IMG/VR virus record: IMGVR_UViG_3300045988_092498
Coordinates: 1 to 17,265 of that record
Reading direction: 5' to 3' (one strand)
Length of the DNA: 17,265 bases
Source: a virus
Taxonomy: Duplodnaviria > Heunggongvirae > Uroviricota > Caudoviricetes
Part shown: positions 5,055 through 14,061 of the stretch, in pieces
Position numbering within the stretch: the stretch's first letter is position 1
How the letters are laid out: every line of letters starts with the position of its first letter
The notes under the pieces: model-generated
What the model was told of the DNA's origin: nothing
The model's input: the letters and a program-made list of their open reading frames with translations, nothing else
Database searches by the model: none
Translations under genes and position numbers: made by a program

Positions 5055-5840
5055 TTATGAGTGGTTTTTATTTGATGCTTTGTATTCTAAAACCTTCTTA
5101 TTGGCGTAAAGGAATTTTGCATATGACAGGAATATAAGCAGACCTGAAATGAAATAAGTTAGGGATATTATTAATAATGTTTTTCTGTGGCTGTTATTAT
5201 CTTTAATCTCCTGACTTAACCATTCGGAGTCCTCCTCGTTTAGCTGTAAGAGCTTATTGCAGGCGATCTCAGGAAGTGTGTCTTTTATAAATACGTTTTG
5301 CAGACTCTTGCAATCGGCAAGGCTATAAGTTTTATTAAATTCAACTGTTTTATTTTTGAAGGATAAAAGAACTTTGTCACTATAAACATAGTACATCATA
5401 TTTTTATATGGTATACCTATGGCATCCCTTACTATAGCGGATTGTTCATTGTGTATGTAACATGCGAAGATAATATAAAGAATTCCGGCCAGGACTGCAC
5501 TCATTGTTTTTGTGATGCATAGCGGTTCTGTTATGTCTCCCCAGAAGCGAGTAAGGAAAAAATCCGATGTTTTTAGTTTTCCATCAATCAGCCCCTGCTG
5601 TATCATTCTCACATCTTCGATGCCTGATACATTGATTCCGTTAAGTGTTTTAAATAGTTGAATGTCGCGCCACTCGCGGTCCAGTCTTTTTAATTTTTTG
5701 TCTGAATATCCAAATTTGAAATAATGTGCAATAAGCCTCATAAGGTTACTTTTACCAAAGCTAAAAAATGCTAATACTGCAAAGACCAAAAGATACAAAA
5801 CGATTAGCTCCCACACATTAGTCACATTATAGCTGACCAT
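5055..5840 (-). CDS. Hypothetical membrane protein, three predicted TM helices; AT-rich cargo gene at the S/V junction (P2 orf30 position)
   Basis: 261-aa reverse-strand ORF, ATG at 5838-5840 preceded by AAGGAGA with a 5-nt spacer. Markedly AT-rich relative to flanking genes. Hydrophobic segments WELIVLYLLVFAVLAFFSF, MSAVLAGILYIIFACYI and TLLIISLTYFISGLLIFLSYA. No recognisable catalytic motif. Confidence 0.65.
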   Translation of the reverse strand: MVSYNVTNVWELIVLYLLVFAVLAFFSFGKSNLMRLIAHYFKFGYSDKKLKRLDREWRDIQLFKTLNGINVSGIEDVRMIQQGLIDGKLKTSDFFLTRFWGDITEPLCITKTMSAVLAGILYIIFACYIHNEQSAIVRDAIGIPYKNMMYYVYSDKVLLSFKNKTVEFNKTYSLADCKSLQNVFIKDTLPEIACNKLLQLNEEDSEWLSQEIKDNNSHRKTLLIISLTYFISGLLIFLSYAKFLYANKKVLEYKASNKNHS

Positions 5841-5855
5841 TACGCTCTCCTTGAA

Positions 5856-5905
5856 TGTTGTCTGGTGGTTCTACAAATGAATCCAGATAGCATAACTTTT
5901 ATATA
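5856..5905 (+). promoter_or_regulatory. Candidate late promoter for the V operon (TGTTGT activator-site-like motif plus TATATT -10-like element)
   Basis: TGTTGTCTGGTGGTTCTACA at 5856-5875, 68 bp upstream of the V start, shares the TGTTGT motif found upstream of FI. P2 late promoters are Ogr-dependent with a TGT-N12-ACA-type element near -55; the match here is partial only. Confidence 0.3.
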
Positions 5906-5923
5906 TTGTGCAATCTCACATGC

Positions 5924-6559
5924 ATGAACACTCTCGCAAATATTCAGGAACTCGCGCGCGCACTGCGCAACATGATCCGCACCGGCATTATCGTCGAAAC
6001 CGACCTTAACGCCGGTCGCTGCCGTGTGCAGACCGGCGGCATGTGCACCGACTGGCTTCAGTGGCTGACCCATCGTGCCGGGCGTTCGCGCACATGGTGG
6101 GCACCTTCCGTGGGGGAACAGGTGCTGATTCTGTCCGTGGGCGGTGAACTCGACACGGCGTTCGTTCTGCCGGGGATTTATTCCGGCGATAACCCTGCGC
6201 CGTCTGCGTCGGCGGATGCCCTGCATATCCGTTTCCCTGACGGGGCGGTGATTGAGTATGAACCCGAAACCAGTGCACTCACGGTAAGCGGAATTAAAAC
6301 GGCCAGCGTGACGGCTTCTGATTCTGTTACTGCCACGGTGCCGGTGGTCATAGTGAAAGCGTCAACCCGCATCACCCTGGACACCCCGGAGGTGGTCTGC
6401 ACCAACAGGCTGATTACCGGCACGCTGGAAGTGCAGAAGGGCGGGACGATGCGCGGCAACATTGAACACACCGGCGGTGAACTCTCATCAAACGGTAAGG
6501 TACTGCATACCCATAAACACCCCGGTGACAGTGGCGGCACAACAGGGGGACCTCTATGA
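5924..6559 (+). CDS. V: Baseplate spike/assembly protein V
   Basis: ATG at 5924 within ORF 5906..6559 gives a 211-aa product (MNTLANIQELARALRNM...), the P2 gpV length. First gene of the baseplate block; stop overlaps the W start (ATGA). Confidence 0.85.
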   Translation: MNTLANIQELARALRNMIRTGIIVETDLNAGRCRVQTGGMCTDWLQWLTHRAGRSRTWWAPSVGEQVLILSVGGELDTAFVLPGIYSGDNPAPSASADALHIRFPDGAVIEYEPETSALTVSGIKTASVTASDSVTATVPVVIVKASTRITLDTPEVVCTNRLITGTLEVQKGGTMRGNIEHTGGELSSNGKVLHTHKHPGDSGGTTGGPL

Positions 6560-8349: not shown

Positions 8350-10560
8350 ATGAGCACAAAATTCAAAACCGTTATCACCACTGCCGGTGCAGCAAAGCTG
8401 GCAGCGGCAACCGCGCCGGGAGGGCGAAAGGTCAACATTACCACGATGGCCGTCGGGGATGGCGGTGGTAAATTGCCTGTCCCGGATGCCGGACAGACCG
8501 GGCTTATCCATGAAGTCTGGCGACATGCGCTGAACAAAATCAGCCAGGACAAACGAAACAGTAATTATATTATCGCAGAGCTGGTTATTCCGCCGGAGGT
8601 GGGCGGTTTCTGGATGCGTGAGCTTGGCCTGTACGATGATGCGGGAACGTTAATTGCCGTGGCGAACATGGCCGAAAGTTATAAGCCAGCTCTTGCCGAA
8701 GGCTCAGGGCGTTCGCAGACCTGCCGCATGGTCATCATCGTCAGCAGTGTGGCCTCAGTGGAGCTGACCATTGACACCACAACGGTGATGGCGACGCAGG
8801 ATTACGTTGATGACAAAATTGCAGAGCATGAACAGTCACGACGTCACCCTGACGCCTCGCTGACCGCAAAAGGTTTTACTCAGTTAAGCAGTGCGACCAA
8901 CAGCACGTCTGAAACACTGGCTGCAACGCCGAAAGCGGTAAAGACCGCCTATGACCTTGCTAATGGGAAATATACTGCACAGGACGCCACCACCGCGCGA
9001 AAAGGCCTTGTTCAGCTCAGTAGTGCGACTAACAGCACGTCTGAAACGCTCGCCGCAACGCCAAAAGCGGTAAAAGCAGCATATGACCTGGCTAACGGGA
9101 AATATACCGCACAGGACGCCACCACCGCGCGAAAAGGCCTTGTCCAGCTAAGTAGCGTCACCAACAGCGATTCTGAAACGCTCGCCGCAACACCAAAAGC
9201 GGTAAAGGCCGCGTATGACCTTGCTAACGGGAAATACACTGCACAGGACGCCACCACAGCGCGAAAAGGTCTTGTCCAGCTAAGTAGCGTCACCAACAGC
9301 GATTCTGAAACGCTTGCGGCAACGCCAAAGGCAGTGAAGTCTGCCTATGACAATGCTGAAAAACGTCTTCAGAAAGATCAGAACGGTGCGGATATTCCGG
9401 GAAAGGATACCTTCACGAAAAATATCGGTGCCTGTCGTGCTTATAGCGGCGCTTTGAGCACTGAAGCCGGAAACTGGACAACCGCGCAGTTTATTGACTG
9501 GCTGGAGTCTCAGGGAGCCTTTAATCATCCCTACTGGATGTGCAAGTGTTCCTGGTCATACGGTAATAACAAAATTATTACCGATACTGACTGTGGGACG
9601 ATTCATCTTGCAGGTTGCGTGATTGAGGTTATGGGCGTTAAAGCAGCAATGACCATTCGTGTGACCACTCCGAGTACATCAAGCGGTGGTGGTACCACCA
9701 GTGCGCAATTCACGTATATCAATCACGGAGCTGATTATGCGCCGGGCTGGCGACGCGACTACAATACGAAAAATAAGCAACCGGCTTTTGCATTAGGGAA
9801 AACAGGAAATACGGTTGCAAATAATAAAGCGGTAGGATGGAACTGGGACAGTGGTGCTTATTGTGCACAGGATGGCGGAGCATCAAAAATGGTGTTGCAT
9901 TTTTACACGGGTGAGGGAAGTTGTCCGGCAATGCAGTTTCTTGTGGATTATAAAAACAGGGGGATTTTTTACAGGTCGGCACGTGATGGGTATGGATTTG
10001 AGGCTGACTGGTCAGAGTTTTATACCACATCACGAAAGCCAACACCTGCGGATATTCTTGCTCTTGCATTATCAGGCGGAAGCATGTCAGGCAGCATAAA
10101 ATTTATCAATGATGCCTTCCTGATTTGGGAAAGAAACACTGACTGGGCGAAAATTGGATTTAAAAATGATTCAGATGCTGATTCTGACTCATACATGTGG
10201 TTTGAAACTGGTGATAATGGCAATGAATATTTTAAATGGCGCATCAGGTCTGGCAGCACAACAAAAGATCTGATGACGCTTAAGTCTGATGCACTACGGG
10301 TTACCGGGCAGGTGATACCATCAAATTTCAGCAATTTTGACTCCCGCTATGTCCGGGATATCCGACTTGGTGGTGCCGCCACATACAAACCTGCGAACAA
10401 TGGCATGACATGGACACATCAGGCACCGTCCGGGTGTGTATATACCGGCATTATTGTTCAGGATACCGGCTCAAACTCTGCCGATAACATTGGTGGCGTA
10501 TATTACAGACCGGTTCAGAAATACATTAACGGGACATGGTACAACGTGGCGCAGGTATAA
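8350..10560 (+). CDS. H: Tail fibre protein H
   Basis: 736-aa ORF after the baseplate genes with a GAGG Shine-Dalgarno. The N-terminal roughly 170 aa resemble P2 gpH as I recall it, and the ORF ends ...RPVQKYINGTWYNVAQV like P2 gpH. It contains tandem 44-aa repeats and an AT-richer, divergent C-terminal region. Confidence 0.85.
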   Translation: MSTKFKTVITTAGAAKLAAATAPGGRKVNITTMAVGDGGGKLPVPDAGQTGLIHEVWRHALNKISQDKRNSNYIIAELVIPPEVGGFWMRELGLYDDAGTLIAVANMAESYKPALAEGSGRSQTCRMVIIVSSVASVELTIDTTTVMATQDYVDDKIAEHEQSRRHPDASLTAKGFTQLSSATNSTSETLAATPKAVKTAYDLANGKYTAQDATTARKGLVQLSSATNSTSETLAATPKAVKAAYDLANGKYTAQDATTARKGLVQLSSVTNSDSETLAATPKAVKAAYDLANGKYTAQDATTARKGLVQLSSVTNSDSETLAATPKAVKSAYDNAEKRLQKDQNGADIPGKDTFTKNIGACRAYSGALSTEAGNWTTAQFIDWLESQGAFNHPYWMCKCSWSYGNNKIITDTDCGTIHLAGCVIEVMGVKAAMTIRVTTPSTSSGGGTTSAQFTYINHGADYAPGWRRDYNTKNKQPAFALGKTGNTVANNKAVGWNWDSGAYCAQDGGASKMVLHFYTGEGSCPAMQFLVDYKNRGIFYRSARDGYGFEADWSEFYTTSRKPTPADILALALSGGSMSGSIKFINDAFLIWERNTDWAKIGFKNDSDADSDSYMWFETGDNGNEYFKWRIRSGSTTKDLMTLKSDALRVTGQVIPSNFSNFDSRYVRDIRLGGAATYKPANNGMTWTHQAPSGCVYTGIIVQDTGSNSADNIGGVYYRPVQKYINGTWYNVAQV
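8868..9395 (+). repeat. Four tandem copies (last partial) of a 132-bp in-frame repeat inside H
   Basis: Landmark cgcgaAAAAGG recurs with a 132-bp period, at 8868 (variant caAAAAGG), 9000, 9132 and 9264. Encoded unit is KG[FL][TV]QLSS[AV]TNS[TD]SETLAATPKAVK[TAS]AYDLANGKYTAQDATTAR. Confidence 0.85.
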
Positions 10561-10563
10561 TTT

Positions 10564-11091
10564 ATGCAGCATTTGATAAATATAACGGCAGGTAATCCAA
10601 AAACGGTTGAACAATATCAATTGACAAAGAACTTTGATGTCGTCTGGTTTTTTACAGAAGATGGTAAGAACTGGTACGAAGAACAAAAGTATTTTGCTGA
10701 TGACACGATAAAAATAGCGTACGACAAAGATAATATCATCCGCTATGTGGAAAAGGATGTGACAGCTATCAGACCGGATGGATTAAGTGTGGTTGAAGTG
10801 GCGGATATTACTGCTAACCGACGGGCGGACATTTCAGGGAACTGGATGTTTAAGGACGGCACAGTGACTAAACGAATTTATACGGCAGAGGAATTGCAGC
10901 AGCAGGCAGAAATTCGGAAAGCCAGACTTCTTGCAGATGCTGAATCCGTGATTTTGCCGCTGGAGCGTGCTGTCAGGCTGAATATGGCAACAGATGAGGA
11001 GCGTAGCCGACTGGATGCATGGGAACGCTACAGCGTTCTGGTCAGTCGTGTGGAGCCTGCACATCCTGAATGGCCGGAAATGCCGCAATAA
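10564..11091 (+). CDS. G: Tail fibre assembly chaperone G
   Basis: 175-aa ORF starting 4 nt after the H stop, P2 gpG length, with the conserved C-terminal ...[21 protein letters not shown]. Confidence 0.8.
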
Positions 11092-11368
11092 GTTGTTTGA
11101 GCTCTGGTGGGAGCTTACATATCTATGGCACAGAGTAAAGCCTAATCTGACAGTCCGCTCTGTGCCAAAAGTAGACGATCATTGCAATACTGATGTTAAG
11201 GAAAGAAATTGTTTGAAAGTAATGAATGCATAAAGAACTGAATAAAAATTTTTCATCAAAAGCACTTTAGTTCCAGCAATTATATTGCTGTGCTCAATGT
11301 TATATGCTTATTTTATAAATGAAATTAATTTCCACAATGCCACCACTAAAGATGGCATCAATTAATCC

Positions 11369-12412
11369 TCAACTATCACTCAATAACTCGAGATAATTTG
11401 AGCAATACGACTTTGGAATAAGGTACATAGGTTTCAGTTTATTGAAGGTGCCAATGCTATCGTTTATTCCGAATTGAGCTCCAAAAAAGAAGTCAGGATC
11501 AAGTGACTCTCTGACCGCTAAAGAAAAAAGATTTAATGCATGAGCTAAATTATAGTGCAGTCGAAATAATTCTTTTCTCCAGTGCTCATACATATCATAT
11601 TTCTCATGATATTTATCTTGGTCCATTCTGATTTTCTTCCAACTCATGTCTCTCTTCCAAAAACCATTTATGTTACTTGCAAAGTTCATATTAGTTATAT
11701 GTTCGCAAAGGTAATACGCATGGTTAGCAAGCTCAACCATTGATAAGTCAAGGTTGGGAAGTCGGCCTGGCATTTGGGTCGTTAGAACGGTCTGGCAGGC
11801 CTCATAAAATCCATCAACAACTTCAGATTGCATTGCATTAGCGATAAGATTATCGCTAATGTTATCCCAGGCATGAAGATACATCTTACTTGTGAGGCGA
11901 TCTACAAGGTAGCGCTCTGTTTTGAACTGGTTACGAGTCGATTGCCCACATATATAATTTTTTTGTTCATTGCTCAGCGTTGCAAAAAAACTCTCAAGAA
12001 CCGTAGCACCAATCACCATCGCTTCATTTAAGTTATATTTATTTTTAATTTCGGCGATGGCATTGTTTAGATGTGGTGGGATGCCGCAATATTTATCATT
12101 GACAACATAATAAAACTCTCTGACTGTGGAAATAGAATTCCAATATGAGAAAAGTTTTTCGAAATCAGCCTTCATTTTATCTAGCGATTTCTTTTCATTA
12201 CTAGGCAGGTCCTCTGGAGCGTATACCTGATAGTAAATTCCTGCATCATATACCCATCCATCATTACCTCTGTCACCTATGTTACCATGAGGTTTTACTT
12301 TATCGAATCCGGGACGATAATATGACATAACTTTCGAAAATAAATTTTCATATTCTATTCCGTTACTTTCATGAACTTTAAGTTTAAAGCTCTGGATATA
12401 TCCATCTGACAC
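11369..12412 (-). CDS. Hypothetical protein of unknown family; AT-rich cargo gene at the G/FI junction (P2 Z/fun position); candidate anti-phage determinant
   Basis: 347-aa reverse-strand ORF with GTG start at 12410-12412 preceded by AGGAGG with a 6-nt spacer. Strongly AT-rich and flanked by AT-rich non-coding DNA (277 bp and 458 bp). No TM segments. Motifs noted by eye: GDRGNDG...YYQVY near the N-terminus and RKELFRLH near the C-terminus. Confidence 0.65.
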   Translation of the reverse strand: MSDGYIQSFKLKVHESNGIEYENLFSKVMSYYRPGFDKVKPHGNIGDRGNDGWVYDAGIYYQVYAPEDLPSNEKKSLDKMKADFEKLFSYWNSISTVREFYYVVNDKYCGIPPHLNNAIAEIKNKYNLNEAMVIGATVLESFFATLSNEQKNYICGQSTRNQFKTERYLVDRLTSKMYLHAWDNISDNLIANAMQSEVVDGFYEACQTVLTTQMPGRLPNLDLSMVELANHAYYLCEHITNMNFASNINGFWKRDMSWKKIRMDQDKYHEKYDMYEHWRKELFRLHYNLAHALNLFSLAVRESLDPDFFFGAQFGINDSIGTFNKLKPMYLIPKSYCSNYLELLSDS

Positions 12413-12748
12413 TTTTGGCCTCCTAACTGAAATTTATTTTTATAACTAAATAAGTGAAGACTTGAGTTAAAAATACTCTCCATTTATTTTGTTTTTTACC
12501 TTCAGTACAGCTTAAGCTGTGCCTAGCTTTGACACTATATCTTTACTAAGCAGTTTTTGGAAACAGATTTTTTGTGACAGTCTATACAATAAATGGTGCT
12601 GCATATGGCTGATAAGAATCTATATATCCACCTGAGCTATAGAGTACCATTAACGACCATTTATCGCTCAAAGCAGGCTGTCAGATTTGATAGCGTTTTG
12701 GCTATGTAAATTGTCAGTCGGAAAATGAGTGTGTACAAATCAGGACAG

Positions 12749-12774
12749 GCGGGCGAATTGCCCGCATTTTCTTT
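12749..12774 (+). terminator. Intrinsic-terminator-like GC hairpin (gcgggc-gaatt-gcccgc) followed by ATTTTCTTTAT
   Basis: Perfect 6-bp GC stem with a 5-nt loop and a T-rich tract on the + strand, about 100 bp upstream of the FI start and just upstream of the candidate FI promoter motif. Confidence 0.55.
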
Positions 12775-12777
12775 ATC

Positions 12778-12840
12778 TGTTGTTTCATCCACTGACCAGC
12801 CAGGTCAAATAGCGTCTCATGCTCTGCACAACAGAAAATA
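12778..12840 (+). promoter_or_regulatory. Candidate late promoter for the FI operon (TGTTGT motif)
   Basis: TGTTGTTTCATCCACTGACCA at 12778-12798, 93 bp upstream of the FI ATG, shares TGTTGT with the region upstream of V. Position agrees with the known P2 P_F late promoter; the dyad match is imperfect. Confidence 0.3.
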
Positions 12841-12870
12841 GTTGCACCCATTAACCACGGAGTTAAACGG

Positions 12871-14061
12871 ATGAGTGACTATCATCACGGCGTGCAGGTG
12901 CTGGAGATTAACGACGGCACCCGCGTCATTTCCACCGTATCCACTGCCATTGTCGGCATGGTCTGCACGGCCAGCGATGCGGATGCGGAAACCTTCCCCC
13001 TCAATAAACCTGTGCTGATTACCAATGTGCAGAGCGCAATTGCAAAGGCCGGTAAAAAAGGCACGCTGGCGGCGTCGTTGCAGGCCATCGCTGACCAGTC
13101 AAAACCGGTCACCGTTGTCGTGCGTGTGGAAGACGGCACCGGCGACGACGAAGAAACGAAACTCGCGCAGACCGTTTCCAATATCATCGGCACCACTGAC
13201 GAAAACGGTCAGTACACCGGACTGAAAGCCCTGCTGGCGGCGGAGTCGGTAACCGGTGTTAAACCGCGTATTCTTGGTGTGCCGGGGCTGGATACCAAAG
13301 AGGTGGCTGTTGCACTGGCATCAGTCTGTCAGAAGCTGCGCGCTTTCGGATATATCAGCGCATGGGGCTGTAAGACCATTTCCGAGGTGAAAGCCTACCG
13401 TCAGAATTTCAGCCAGCGTGAGCTGATGGTCATCTGGCCGGATTTCCTCGCATGGGATACGGTTGCCAGTACCACCGCCACCGCGTATGCCACCGCCCGT
13501 GCGCTGGGTCTGCGTGCCAGAATCGACCAGGAGCAGGGCTGGCATAAAACGCTGTCCAACGTCGGGGTGAACGGTGTTACCGGCATCAGCGCATCTGTAT
13601 TCTGGGATTTGCAGGAGTCCGGCACCGATGCTGACCTGCTGAATGAGTCAGGCGTCACAACGCTGATTCGCCGTGACGGTTTCCGCTTCTGGGGTAACCG
13701 TACCTGCTCTGATGACCCGCTGTTCCTCTTTGAAAACTACACCCGCACCGCGCAGGTGCTGGCCGACACGATGGCTGAGGCGCACATGTGGGCGGTGGAC
13801 AAGCCCATCACCGCAACGCTGATTCGCGACATCGTTGACGGCATCAATGCCAAATTCCGTGAGCTGAAAACAAACGGCTATATCGTGGATGCGACCTGCT
13901 GGTTCAGCGAAGAATCCAACGATGCGGAAACCCTCAAGGCCGGAAAACTGTATATCGACTACGACTATACACCGGTGCCTCCTCTCGAAAACCTGACCCT
14001 GCGCCAGCGTATTACCGATAAATACCTGGCAAATCTGGTCACTTCGGTTAACAGCAATTAA
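12871..14061 (+). CDS. FI: Tail sheath protein FI
   Basis: 396-aa ORF, P2 gpFI length, with a GGAG Shine-Dalgarno; followed by the tube gene. Confidence 0.9.
   Translation: MSDYHHGVQVLEINDGTRVISTVSTAIVGMVCTASDADAETFPLNKPVLITNVQSAIAKAGKKGTLAASLQAIADQSKPVTVVVRVEDGTGDDEETKLAQTVSNIIGTTDENGQYTGLKALLAAESVTGVKPRILGVPGLDTKEVAVALASVCQKLRAFGYISAWGCKTISEVKAYRQNFSQRELMVIWPDFLAWDTVASTTATAYATARALGLRARIDQEQGWHKTLSNVGVNGVTGISASVFWDLQESGTDADLLNESGVTTLIRRDGFRFWGNRTCSDDPLFLFENYTRTAQVLADTMAEAHMWAVDKPITATLIRDIVDGINAKFRELKTNGYIVDATCWFSEESNDAETLKAGKLYIDYDYTPVPPLENLTLRQRITDKYLANLVTSVNSN

Follow-up and report, generated by a model that had tools for sequence, protein, structure and literature searches.

A mobile single-gene cassette at the Z/fun hotspot of a P2-like phage encodes a candidate anti-phage effector protein

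The window analysed here is the whole 17,265-nucleotide stretch of the IMG/VR virus record IMGVR_UViG_3300045988_092498 (Caudoviricetes), which is 95.6% identical to phage P2 over 85% of the window length. Between its tail-fibre assembly gene G and its tail sheath gene FI lies a cargo gene (11369..12412, minus strand) encoding a protein of 347 aa, and this gene is the subject of the present work. A previous, sequence-only reading of the window had taken the gene for cargo of the Z/fun hotspot and its product for a defence or abortive-infection protein made in the lysogen. Our analysis assigns the gene to a mobile single-gene cassette and relates the N-terminal part of its product to the effector heads of known immune systems.

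The cargo gene and the hotspot between G and FI

The placement of the gene is confirmed by PHROG profiles, which identify G at 10564..11091 (plus strand; phrog_136, E 1e-76), its neighbour, the tail fibre gene H, at 8350-10560, and FI at 12871..14061 (plus strand; phrog_23, E 2e-159). Non-coding flanks of 277 bp (11092-11368) and 458 bp (12413-12870) separate the cargo gene from G and FI, respectively. The reverse-strand open reading frame reported earlier is present as described: it begins with GTG at 12412-12410, six nucleotides behind the ribosome-binding site AGGAGG (12419..12424, minus strand), and ends with TGA at 11369-11371. Its richness in AT, too, was correctly noticed, since every 400-nt window of 11201-12800 has a GC content of 0.32-0.39, against 0.55-0.60 in FI and most of the window; across G and the 3' region of H, the same measure gives 0.41-0.50.

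An open reading frame of 1044 nt in DNA of 35% GC cannot be put down to chance. We found 45 full-length homologues of the protein at 39-90% identity, all annotated as hypothetical, in Klebsiella, Proteus, Enterobacter, Morganella, Serratia, Shewanella, Vibrio and Pseudomonas. In six homologous cassettes the start column is GTG or ATG, preceded by a conserved TAGGAGG/TAGGGG. The ratio of nonsynonymous to synonymous substitution rates (dN/dS), calculated against copies from Proteus and from a Klebsiella phage, is 0.15-0.16 for the gene as a whole, 0.09-0.12 for the N-terminal and 0.18-0.20 for the C-terminal domain. These data clearly indicate that 11369-12412 is a real gene under purifying selection in both domains.

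The region upstream of the gene travels with it (12413..12669, minus strand) and is a leader and promoter region with blocks that are invariant in six contexts, among them TTTATTGTAT, GATATAGT, GAAGGTAAA and ATAAATGGAG. Between distant cassettes, these 256 bp match the coding sequence in conservation. Their identity to the Proteus and Klebsiella-phage cassettes is 79-80% despite a synonymous divergence (dS) of 0.48-0.72, for which the calculated neutral expectation is about 54-65%; the leader and promoter are therefore constrained. A promoter-like site, identified by consensus match only, consists of a -35 element TTTCCA (12563-12558) and a -10 element TATAGT (12539-12534). As to structured RNA, the leader has no match in Rfam, the RNAalifold consensus is weak, with only three compensatory pairs, and the minimum free energy z-score is -0.94; no convincing structure was found. 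An ATG at 12483 resembles the start of an upstream open reading frame whose length varies between cassettes. Directly 3' of the stop codon, a hairpin formed by ATGCCA and TGGCAT around 10 nt (11337..11358, minus strand) is kept in six of the six cassettes and may act as a weak terminator for the cargo gene; the terminator scan did not call it.

A strong terminator-like hairpin of the opposite, plus strand, GCGGGCGAATTGCCCGC followed by a T-rich tail, is located at 12749-12765, where the sequence is conserved with P2, shortly before the pF activator site. No terminator-like site was found in the interval that separates G from the 3' end of the cargo gene, and late transcripts of the V operon may therefore run through this gene in antisense.

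Comparison with P2 supports the identification of the locus as that of Z/fun. The P2 record has fun(Z), annotated as blocking phage T5, on the minus strand of the same interval, and the G/FI locus is named among the P2 hotspots (bioRxiv 10.1101/2024.10.15.618418). In blastn against P2, homology ends 80 bp past G (11171) and restarts at 12661, so that a segment of about 1.49 kb (11172..12660) stands in for 2.08 kb of P2 with fun(Z). The 347-aa protein has no sequence similarity to Fun(Z). It resembles fun(Z), old and tin of P2 in being encoded by a variable, AT-rich gene with its own predicted expression signals, and it shares with fun(Z) the position and the minus strand.

Variability of the cargo at this locus had been expected and was found on both scales considered. 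The flanks of the hotspot are present in 1019 complete E. coli genomes, of which two carry the cargo. Among 37 P2-like viral contigs, sampled by means of the conserved terminal hairpin described below, the cargo occurs in one, and it is thus not an invariant gene of the position. In these contigs the G-FI interval ranges from 0.76 to 5.9 kb with a GC content of 0.31-0.45, and comprises about 30 gene arrangements on either strand. The gene under study accordingly has the attributes of a moron: a variable locus, foreign base composition, its own predicted expression signals, and variation and dispensability among relatives.

When ten representative alternative cargo proteins of the G/FI site were compared with PADLOC models, eight gave matches: to a fused PARIS AriAB (1.9e-187), AbiGi (1e-41), TIR, a DpdB-like protein, Hp1 (weakly) and the candidate systems PDC-S51, PDC-S15 and PDC-S64. 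The location of the gene therefore argues strongly for a role in defence. According to a 2026 preprint, unannotated and “minimised” systems of the hotspots, such as a lone ThsA, are often functional, which makes the prediction of a defence function plausible, though less surprising.

One of the alternative cargos is a solo 360-aa protein with a SMEK domain (NF033859, E 2e-24) at the G/FI site of Escherichia phage vB_EcoM-12474III (NC_049457.1, 4975-6057). It has the hotspot, the orientation and a similar size in common with the 347-aa protein, but no detectable sequence similarity to it. As SMEK is listed as a type of the Lamassu LmuA effector, this is a second Lamassu-type effector domain standing alone at G/FI.

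A lysogenic conversion gene may also serve its host, or its prophage, in a different way. Partition systems and cytolethal distending toxin are examples of P2 hotspot cargo without a defence role (PMC9122126), and the function of the 347-aa protein is read from context alone. It is quite unlikely, in our opinion, that the gene confers a benefit other than defence or acts as a toxin or addiction module which stabilises the prophage. The N-terminal head of the protein occurs in immune architectures and the neighbours of its Pseudomonas homologue are defence systems (both are considered below), which speaks against a non-defence benefit. For addiction, one would look for a conserved adjacent antitoxin or antisense RNA; the flanks contain no conserved small open reading frame of an antitoxin-like kind, the candidate frames being broken in the Proteus and Klebsiella-phage cassettes, and, as stated above, Rfam gave no match. 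The 347-aa protein also has neither a secretion signal nor a virulence-type domain.

The mobile cassette and its ends

Alignment (blastn) with the Proteus, Klebsiella-phage and E. coli E308 loci delimits the cassette as a block of about 1.55 kb (11111-12669), which consists of the gene together with about 256 bp of DNA on its upstream and about 250 bp on its downstream side. It occupies three positions in P2-like phages and is found in other prophages and islands as well. The block recurs with 81-84% identity in four types of location. In the Proteus mirabilis chromosome it is conserved as a unit (84%), and in the P2-like Klebsiella phage ST147-VIM1phi7.1 (81%) it occupies the other P2 hotspot, that between S and V, on the late-gene strand. 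A Serratia P2-like prophage has it at G/FI, flipped to the tail-gene strand, and a Morganella P2-like prophage has it behind D and ogr, where the prophage ends. In another P2-like phage, an intact cassette at G/FI is 97.8% identical to that of the window. Plasmids are essentially free of it.

More remote copies occur in still other surroundings. In Enterobacter, a homologous cassette is placed at the edge of a lambdoid-type prophage, adjoining umuDC, SRAP and DinI genes. In an island of Pseudomonas monteilii, the homologue is located beside Septu PtuA/PtuB, PDC-S39 (6e-206) and a PD-T7-4-like gene. With the distant family members from Pseudomonas, Shewanella and Vibrio, the similarity to the window is restricted to the coding region (blastn). 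Ten homologous contexts were inspected, and none has a conserved neighbour gene, an ABC ATPase included. The protein therefore works alone or with host factors. Some family members are longer, 444-446 aa, because about 100 aa are added at their C-terminus (L023 3989-5323; P0016, P0017 and P0022); P0016 originates from Vibrio and the others from metagenomes or viral contigs.

Both ends of the cassette carry conserved sequence elements. A terminal hairpin of 42 nt (11126..11167) marks both the G-side border of the hotspot and the 3' terminus of the cassette; in it, TGGCACAGAG and CTCTGTGCCA are separated by 22 nt with the loop CCTAATCTGACAG. It has no T-run and is not a canonical terminator. In P2 and phage 12474III, the same hairpin comes after G regardless of the cargo. 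It likewise closes the cassette copies of Proteus, the Klebsiella phage, Morganella and Serratia, is degraded in Enterobacter, and recurs as a pattern in at least 119 viral contigs. The cassette is also bracketed by an imperfect inverted repeat of 39 nt with 72% complementarity and 1466 nt between the arms. The left arm (11144..11182) contains the core AATCTGACAG. In the right arm (12649..12687), the core reads CTGTCAGATT on the plus strand and precedes the start codon of FI by about 194 bp; this exact core of 10 nt is present at just these two places of the window. Most of the 37 P2-like contigs likewise have the right-hand core about 194 bp ahead of the FI ATG. The hairpin may represent a recombination joint for the swapping of cargo, and the conserved cassette ends hint at the route by which hotspot cargo is exchanged. 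A reading of the ends as integron attC sites was dropped, no RYYYAAC/GTTRRRY pair having been seen in the terminal hairpin.

Such ends invite the suggestion that the protein is a selfish nuclease which moves or homes its own repeat-bounded cassette between hotspots. Homing endonucleases of the PD-(D/E)xK type and TnsA-type enzymes exist, and the several insertion points in both orientations, together with the 39-nt repeat and the conserved hairpin, would be in accordance with such an enzyme. We nevertheless find this very unlikely. The same hairpin and repeat core flank the unrelated cargos fun(Z), the SMEK protein and PARIS, and these elements thus belong to the hotspot and not to the 347-aa gene. 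The Pseudomonas, Shewanella and Vibrio members share with the window the coding region only (the hairpin was not searched there), and the other architectures in which the head occurs are those of immunity.

The N-terminal head and the C-terminal domain

An AlphaFold2 model of the protein, built on 31 family members (predicted local distance difference test 88.6, predicted template modelling score 0.79), has two domains. The N-terminal domain (aa 1 to about 150; 11963..12412, minus strand), hereafter the head, has the topology alpha-alpha-beta-beta-beta-alpha-beta-alpha-beta, which includes the alpha-beta-beta-beta-alpha-beta core of the restriction-endonuclease, or PD-(D/E)xK-type, fold. Its weak Foldseek matches all have this one fold and comprise restriction enzymes, Mus81/XPF, Cap4 and Rpb5-N, the best of the solved structures being FokI, N.BspD6I, EcoT38I and EcoO109I. 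None of the matches in the PDB and BFVD reaches E<=1e-3, and sequence searches of solved structures with either the single sequence or a profile gave no match.

The motifs of the head are GDRGNDG (46-52), YYQVYAPE (60-67), K79 followed by D83F, and VVNDK (103-107). The previous reading had numbered D47 and D51 of GDRGNDG, QVY at 62-64 and RKELFRLH at 279-286 correctly, and had compared the first of these stretches with the core of Mrr-like nucleases while pointing to the lack of the lysine. The fold and the motifs agree with this comparison, as GDRGNDG...YYQVY aligns with GDGGIDG...YVQAK of E. coli Mrr, and the lysine is indeed absent, but the comparison of profiles is not significant: hhalign of the head against 120 Mrr homologues aligned the motifs with a probability of 1.9% (E 0.026), the Mrr profile being shallow (members >=70% identical). 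The head was therefore not placed in Mrr_cat (PF04471); a Pfam search with 41 members gave no match at E<=10. A canonical Mrr-like cargo with the motif QCK, from another phage (L070), is not detectably related to the 347-aa protein. The head shares its fold with Mrr and with FokI-type nucleases; in contrast to them, the QxK of Mrr is replaced by QxY, QxF or QxH in all relatives and the protein has no N-terminal DNA-recognition domain.

Conservation was assessed in 222 head sequences. G43, G46, D47, D51, G52, Q62, K79 and N105 are invariant in all of them, and D106 (221 of 222), P66 (221) and N50 (218) nearly so. The position of the Mrr lysine is occupied by Tyr in 195 heads, by Phe in 23 and by His in four, and by Lys in none, even in effectors embedded in complete systems. 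The D...(D/E/Q)xK signature on beta-2 and beta-3 is thus missing. We therefore describe the head as a domain of the restriction-endonuclease fold whose loop is Mrr-like and whose active site is non-canonical. The place of the lysine may be taken by K79, which is invariant and belongs to the helix that follows beta-3, or else by N105/D106/K107.

The absence of the canonical lysine from 222 of 222 heads suggests another possibility, namely that the protein acts in defence or conflict with a head that is no DNase and serves for the binding or sensing of DNA or for a different reaction. The polar residues of the C-terminal domain (D255, H286, N288, N294, R301 and D318) would then form the effector or ligand site, with which the purifying selection on this domain and its many invariant polar and aromatic residues are in accordance. 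This explanation is unlikely, since the same lysine-less head stands in the effector position of ABC-3C systems, where CTD10 is the adaptor, and at the N-terminus of NACHT/STAND proteins, and the set of D47, D51, Q62, K79, N105 and D106 resembles an active site and not a binding surface. An effector in the C-terminal domain is disfavoured as well, as its structural matches are only generic helical bundles and the putative HEPN arginine is not conserved.

This domain (aa ~151-347, about 195 aa; 11372..11962, minus strand) is family-specific and is modelled as a helical bundle with two small beta-hairpins. Its conserved residues include W182, S186, D255, W258, W278, H286, N288, N294, R301, D318, G321, Y323 and N324, and its structural matches are generic four-helix bundles only. 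RKELFRLH had been proposed to fit the Rx4-6H pattern of HEPN proteins, which did not hold. R279 is Arg in about two thirds of the 31 family members and S, T, A, D, I or M in the rest, H286 is nearly invariant, and no HEPN protein is among the listed structural matches of the domain; the fit of the motif is, on the alignment, most likely due to chance.

The profile searches suggested earlier for the whole protein had a divided outcome. Pfam, NCBIfam and PHROG contain no family for it, and none of them has a model of the head. In the PADLOC library the sole match was the LmuA model PDLC03852 (3e-8), which covers aa 16-110, that is, the head only, and 98 of 336 profile positions; PADLOC does not call the gene as a system. 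An exhaustive search with aa 2-150 was more informative and returned 876 clusters at 50% identity (E<=1e-3).

The head proved to be a module shared by several types of immune protein. It is found on proteins of about 312 aa that carry Pfam CTD10 (C-terminal domain 10 of ABC-3C systems), and their heads are 41-52% identical to that of the 347-aa protein (E 1e-22 to 1e-33). In Bacillus, such a CTD10 effector is the first gene of an operon with MC6 and a DUF2326 ABC ATPase, which corresponds to the PADLOC candidate PDC-M68 with weak LmuB matches. A 295-aa family of Vibrio and Shewanella has the head in single genes of apparent integron-type cassette arrays. The head also starts NACHT and nSTAND3 fusions (P0206, P0171 and P0161), 1270-aa TPR proteins ending in a PIN (PIN-TPR-GreABC) domain, and a 1372-aa HD-CE + HATPase_c_3 + TPR protein; P0175, P0197 and P0153 are among these large TPR-PIN and HD-CE types. 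In ABC-3C/Lamassu systems, the N-terminal domain of the corresponding subunit is the toxic effector, and its C-terminal domain docks onto the ATPase. The head is therefore an effector by position, and its homology to the heads of immune effectors strengthens the inference of defence beyond what the previous reading could offer. Lamassu effectors are known to include Mrr and PDDEXK endonuclease domains (bioRxiv 10.1101/2022.05.11.491447).

The C-terminal domain is not related to that of the ABC-3C effectors. In BLAST clustering, the C-terminal regions of head-bearing proteins form 19 groups, singletons included, and profile-profile comparison of the domain with CTD10 and the seven next largest groups gave no match. 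The CTD10 adaptor itself was rejected as a homologue, with an hhalign probability of 4.7% over the tail of the N-domain only and no Pfam CTD match.

A phage-encoded protein homologous to a host immune effector head could conceivably be an agent of counter-defence, mimicking host ABC-3C or Lamassu-type effectors and interfering with such systems. This we rank as highly improbable, below the other explanations considered. As the C-terminal domain is unrelated to CTD10, no competition for the ATPase is to be expected; as the motifs of the head are identical to those of effectors embedded in systems, it is no degraded decoy. The head-bearing proteins are present also in chromosomal defence islands and in apparent integron-type cassette arrays, and the layout of the gene, with the minus strand and its own promoter, fits the genes of lysogenic conversion.

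The proposed function and further features of the window

Taking the data on the sequence and the analogy with characterised systems together, we lean towards the view that the locus is a lysogenic-conversion (moron) cassette at the Z/fun hotspot encoding a single-protein anti-phage sensor-effector nuclease, an orphan effector of the Lamassu type. The nearest relative is the LmuA-type effector of Lamassu/ABC-3C systems (PDC-M68), which has a homologous N-terminal part of about 150 aa with the same set of motifs, the absent lysine included, and a similar two-part organisation of an effector head and a C-terminal, regulatory domain. Of the three features of Lamassu/ABC-3C, the 347-aa protein possesses the N-terminal effector domain and fails in two, namely the C-terminal adaptor and the operon with an SMC/ABC ATPase and, usually, LmuC or a middle component (MC). 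The cassette is single-gene and the rest of the window consists of P2 structural genes; no ABC/SMC ATPase or middle component is encoded in the cassette, the window or the homologous loci, whereas the CTD10 relatives have both. The NLR-like NACHT/nSTAND3 proteins have the same N-terminal head, but the 347-aa protein lacks their NTPase and repeat sensor (347 versus 611-830 aa).

The following mechanism may be suggested. The protein would be made in the lysogen, because its gene appears to have a promoter and leader of its own and to be read from the strand that does not carry the late tail operons, an arrangement shared by fun(Z), old and tin of P2. Its N-terminal ~150 aa would represent a toxic or DNA-cleaving head, presumably with nuclease chemistry, and the SMC/ABC sensor and adaptor domain would be replaced by the family-specific helical domain. 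This domain might keep the head inactive until a phage cue is received. LmuA is a monomer when bound by LmuB/C and gains nuclease activity on assembling into a tetramer via its C-terminal domain, and it auto-activates on over-expression alone (PMC12663957). By analogy, activation of the 347-aa protein would probably proceed through oligomerisation, after which the active head would cut DNA and stop phage growth, through abortive infection or by attacking the phage DNA directly.

Several observations weigh against this interpretation. Nuclease activity is not assured for a head in which the beta-3 catalytic lysine of Mrr and FokI is consistently missing, the profile comparison with Mrr is non-significant, and the structural matches of the head stay above the Foldseek threshold given above. 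The C-terminal domain has no informative homologue, and a role as sensor is assigned to it by analogy only. The promoter scan of the flanks produced two matches, no more than in shuffled controls. All sources label the family members as hypothetical proteins. Finally, both copies in complete E. coli genomes (E308, NZ_CP030281.1, L001 14270-15318; strain PSS-10), which adjoin ogrK/yegQ within a degraded remnant of P2, are frameshifted by a 5-bp insertion, AATGC, near window position 11840, with truncation after about residue 195.

A further, more far-reaching idea is that the protein founds a single-gene defence family not described so far, in which the head was orphaned from SMC/ABC or STAND sensors and acquired a new helical sensor, and which uses a rearranged active site (D47, D51, Q62, K79, N105 and D106) or a non-standard chemistry. 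Our literature search found no paper describing the family, and we put this idea forward tentatively, as possible but somewhat short of an even chance. If the protein is protective, a compact one-gene system would be added to the defences of P2-like prophages in Enterobacterales, Vibrio, Shewanella and Pseudomonas. Protection would also mean that the effector heads of Lamassu/ABC-3C and NLR-like proteins can work without their usual ATPase sensors, and the questions of what the new C-terminal domain senses and whether it drives oligomerisation would become tractable in a protein of 347 aa rather than in a multi-subunit complex. The biochemistry of the head, with its non-canonical active site, would annotate many immune proteins (876 clusters) at once.

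Elsewhere in the window there is a second AT-rich island, located between S and V (5055-5840, minus strand; GC 0.35-0.39). Its minus-strand open reading frame of 261 aa is orf30 of P2 (phrog_2407, E 4e-140), of unknown function and without a PADLOC match; it is this S/V site that holds the homologue of the 347-aa gene in Klebsiella phage ST147-VIM1phi7.1. A frame of 128 aa at 5840-6226 (minus strand) was taken as spurious, as it overlaps the GC-rich start of gene V.

The stretch at about 9400-11000, which covers the 3' half of H and G, has the GC content of 0.41-0.50 mentioned above, and G is only 77% identical to that of P2. In one contig (L021), a near-identical copy of the cassette is joined to a different tail-fibre sequence. 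This pattern of sequence divergence suggests that the receptor-binding region beside the hotspot undergoes mosaic exchange.

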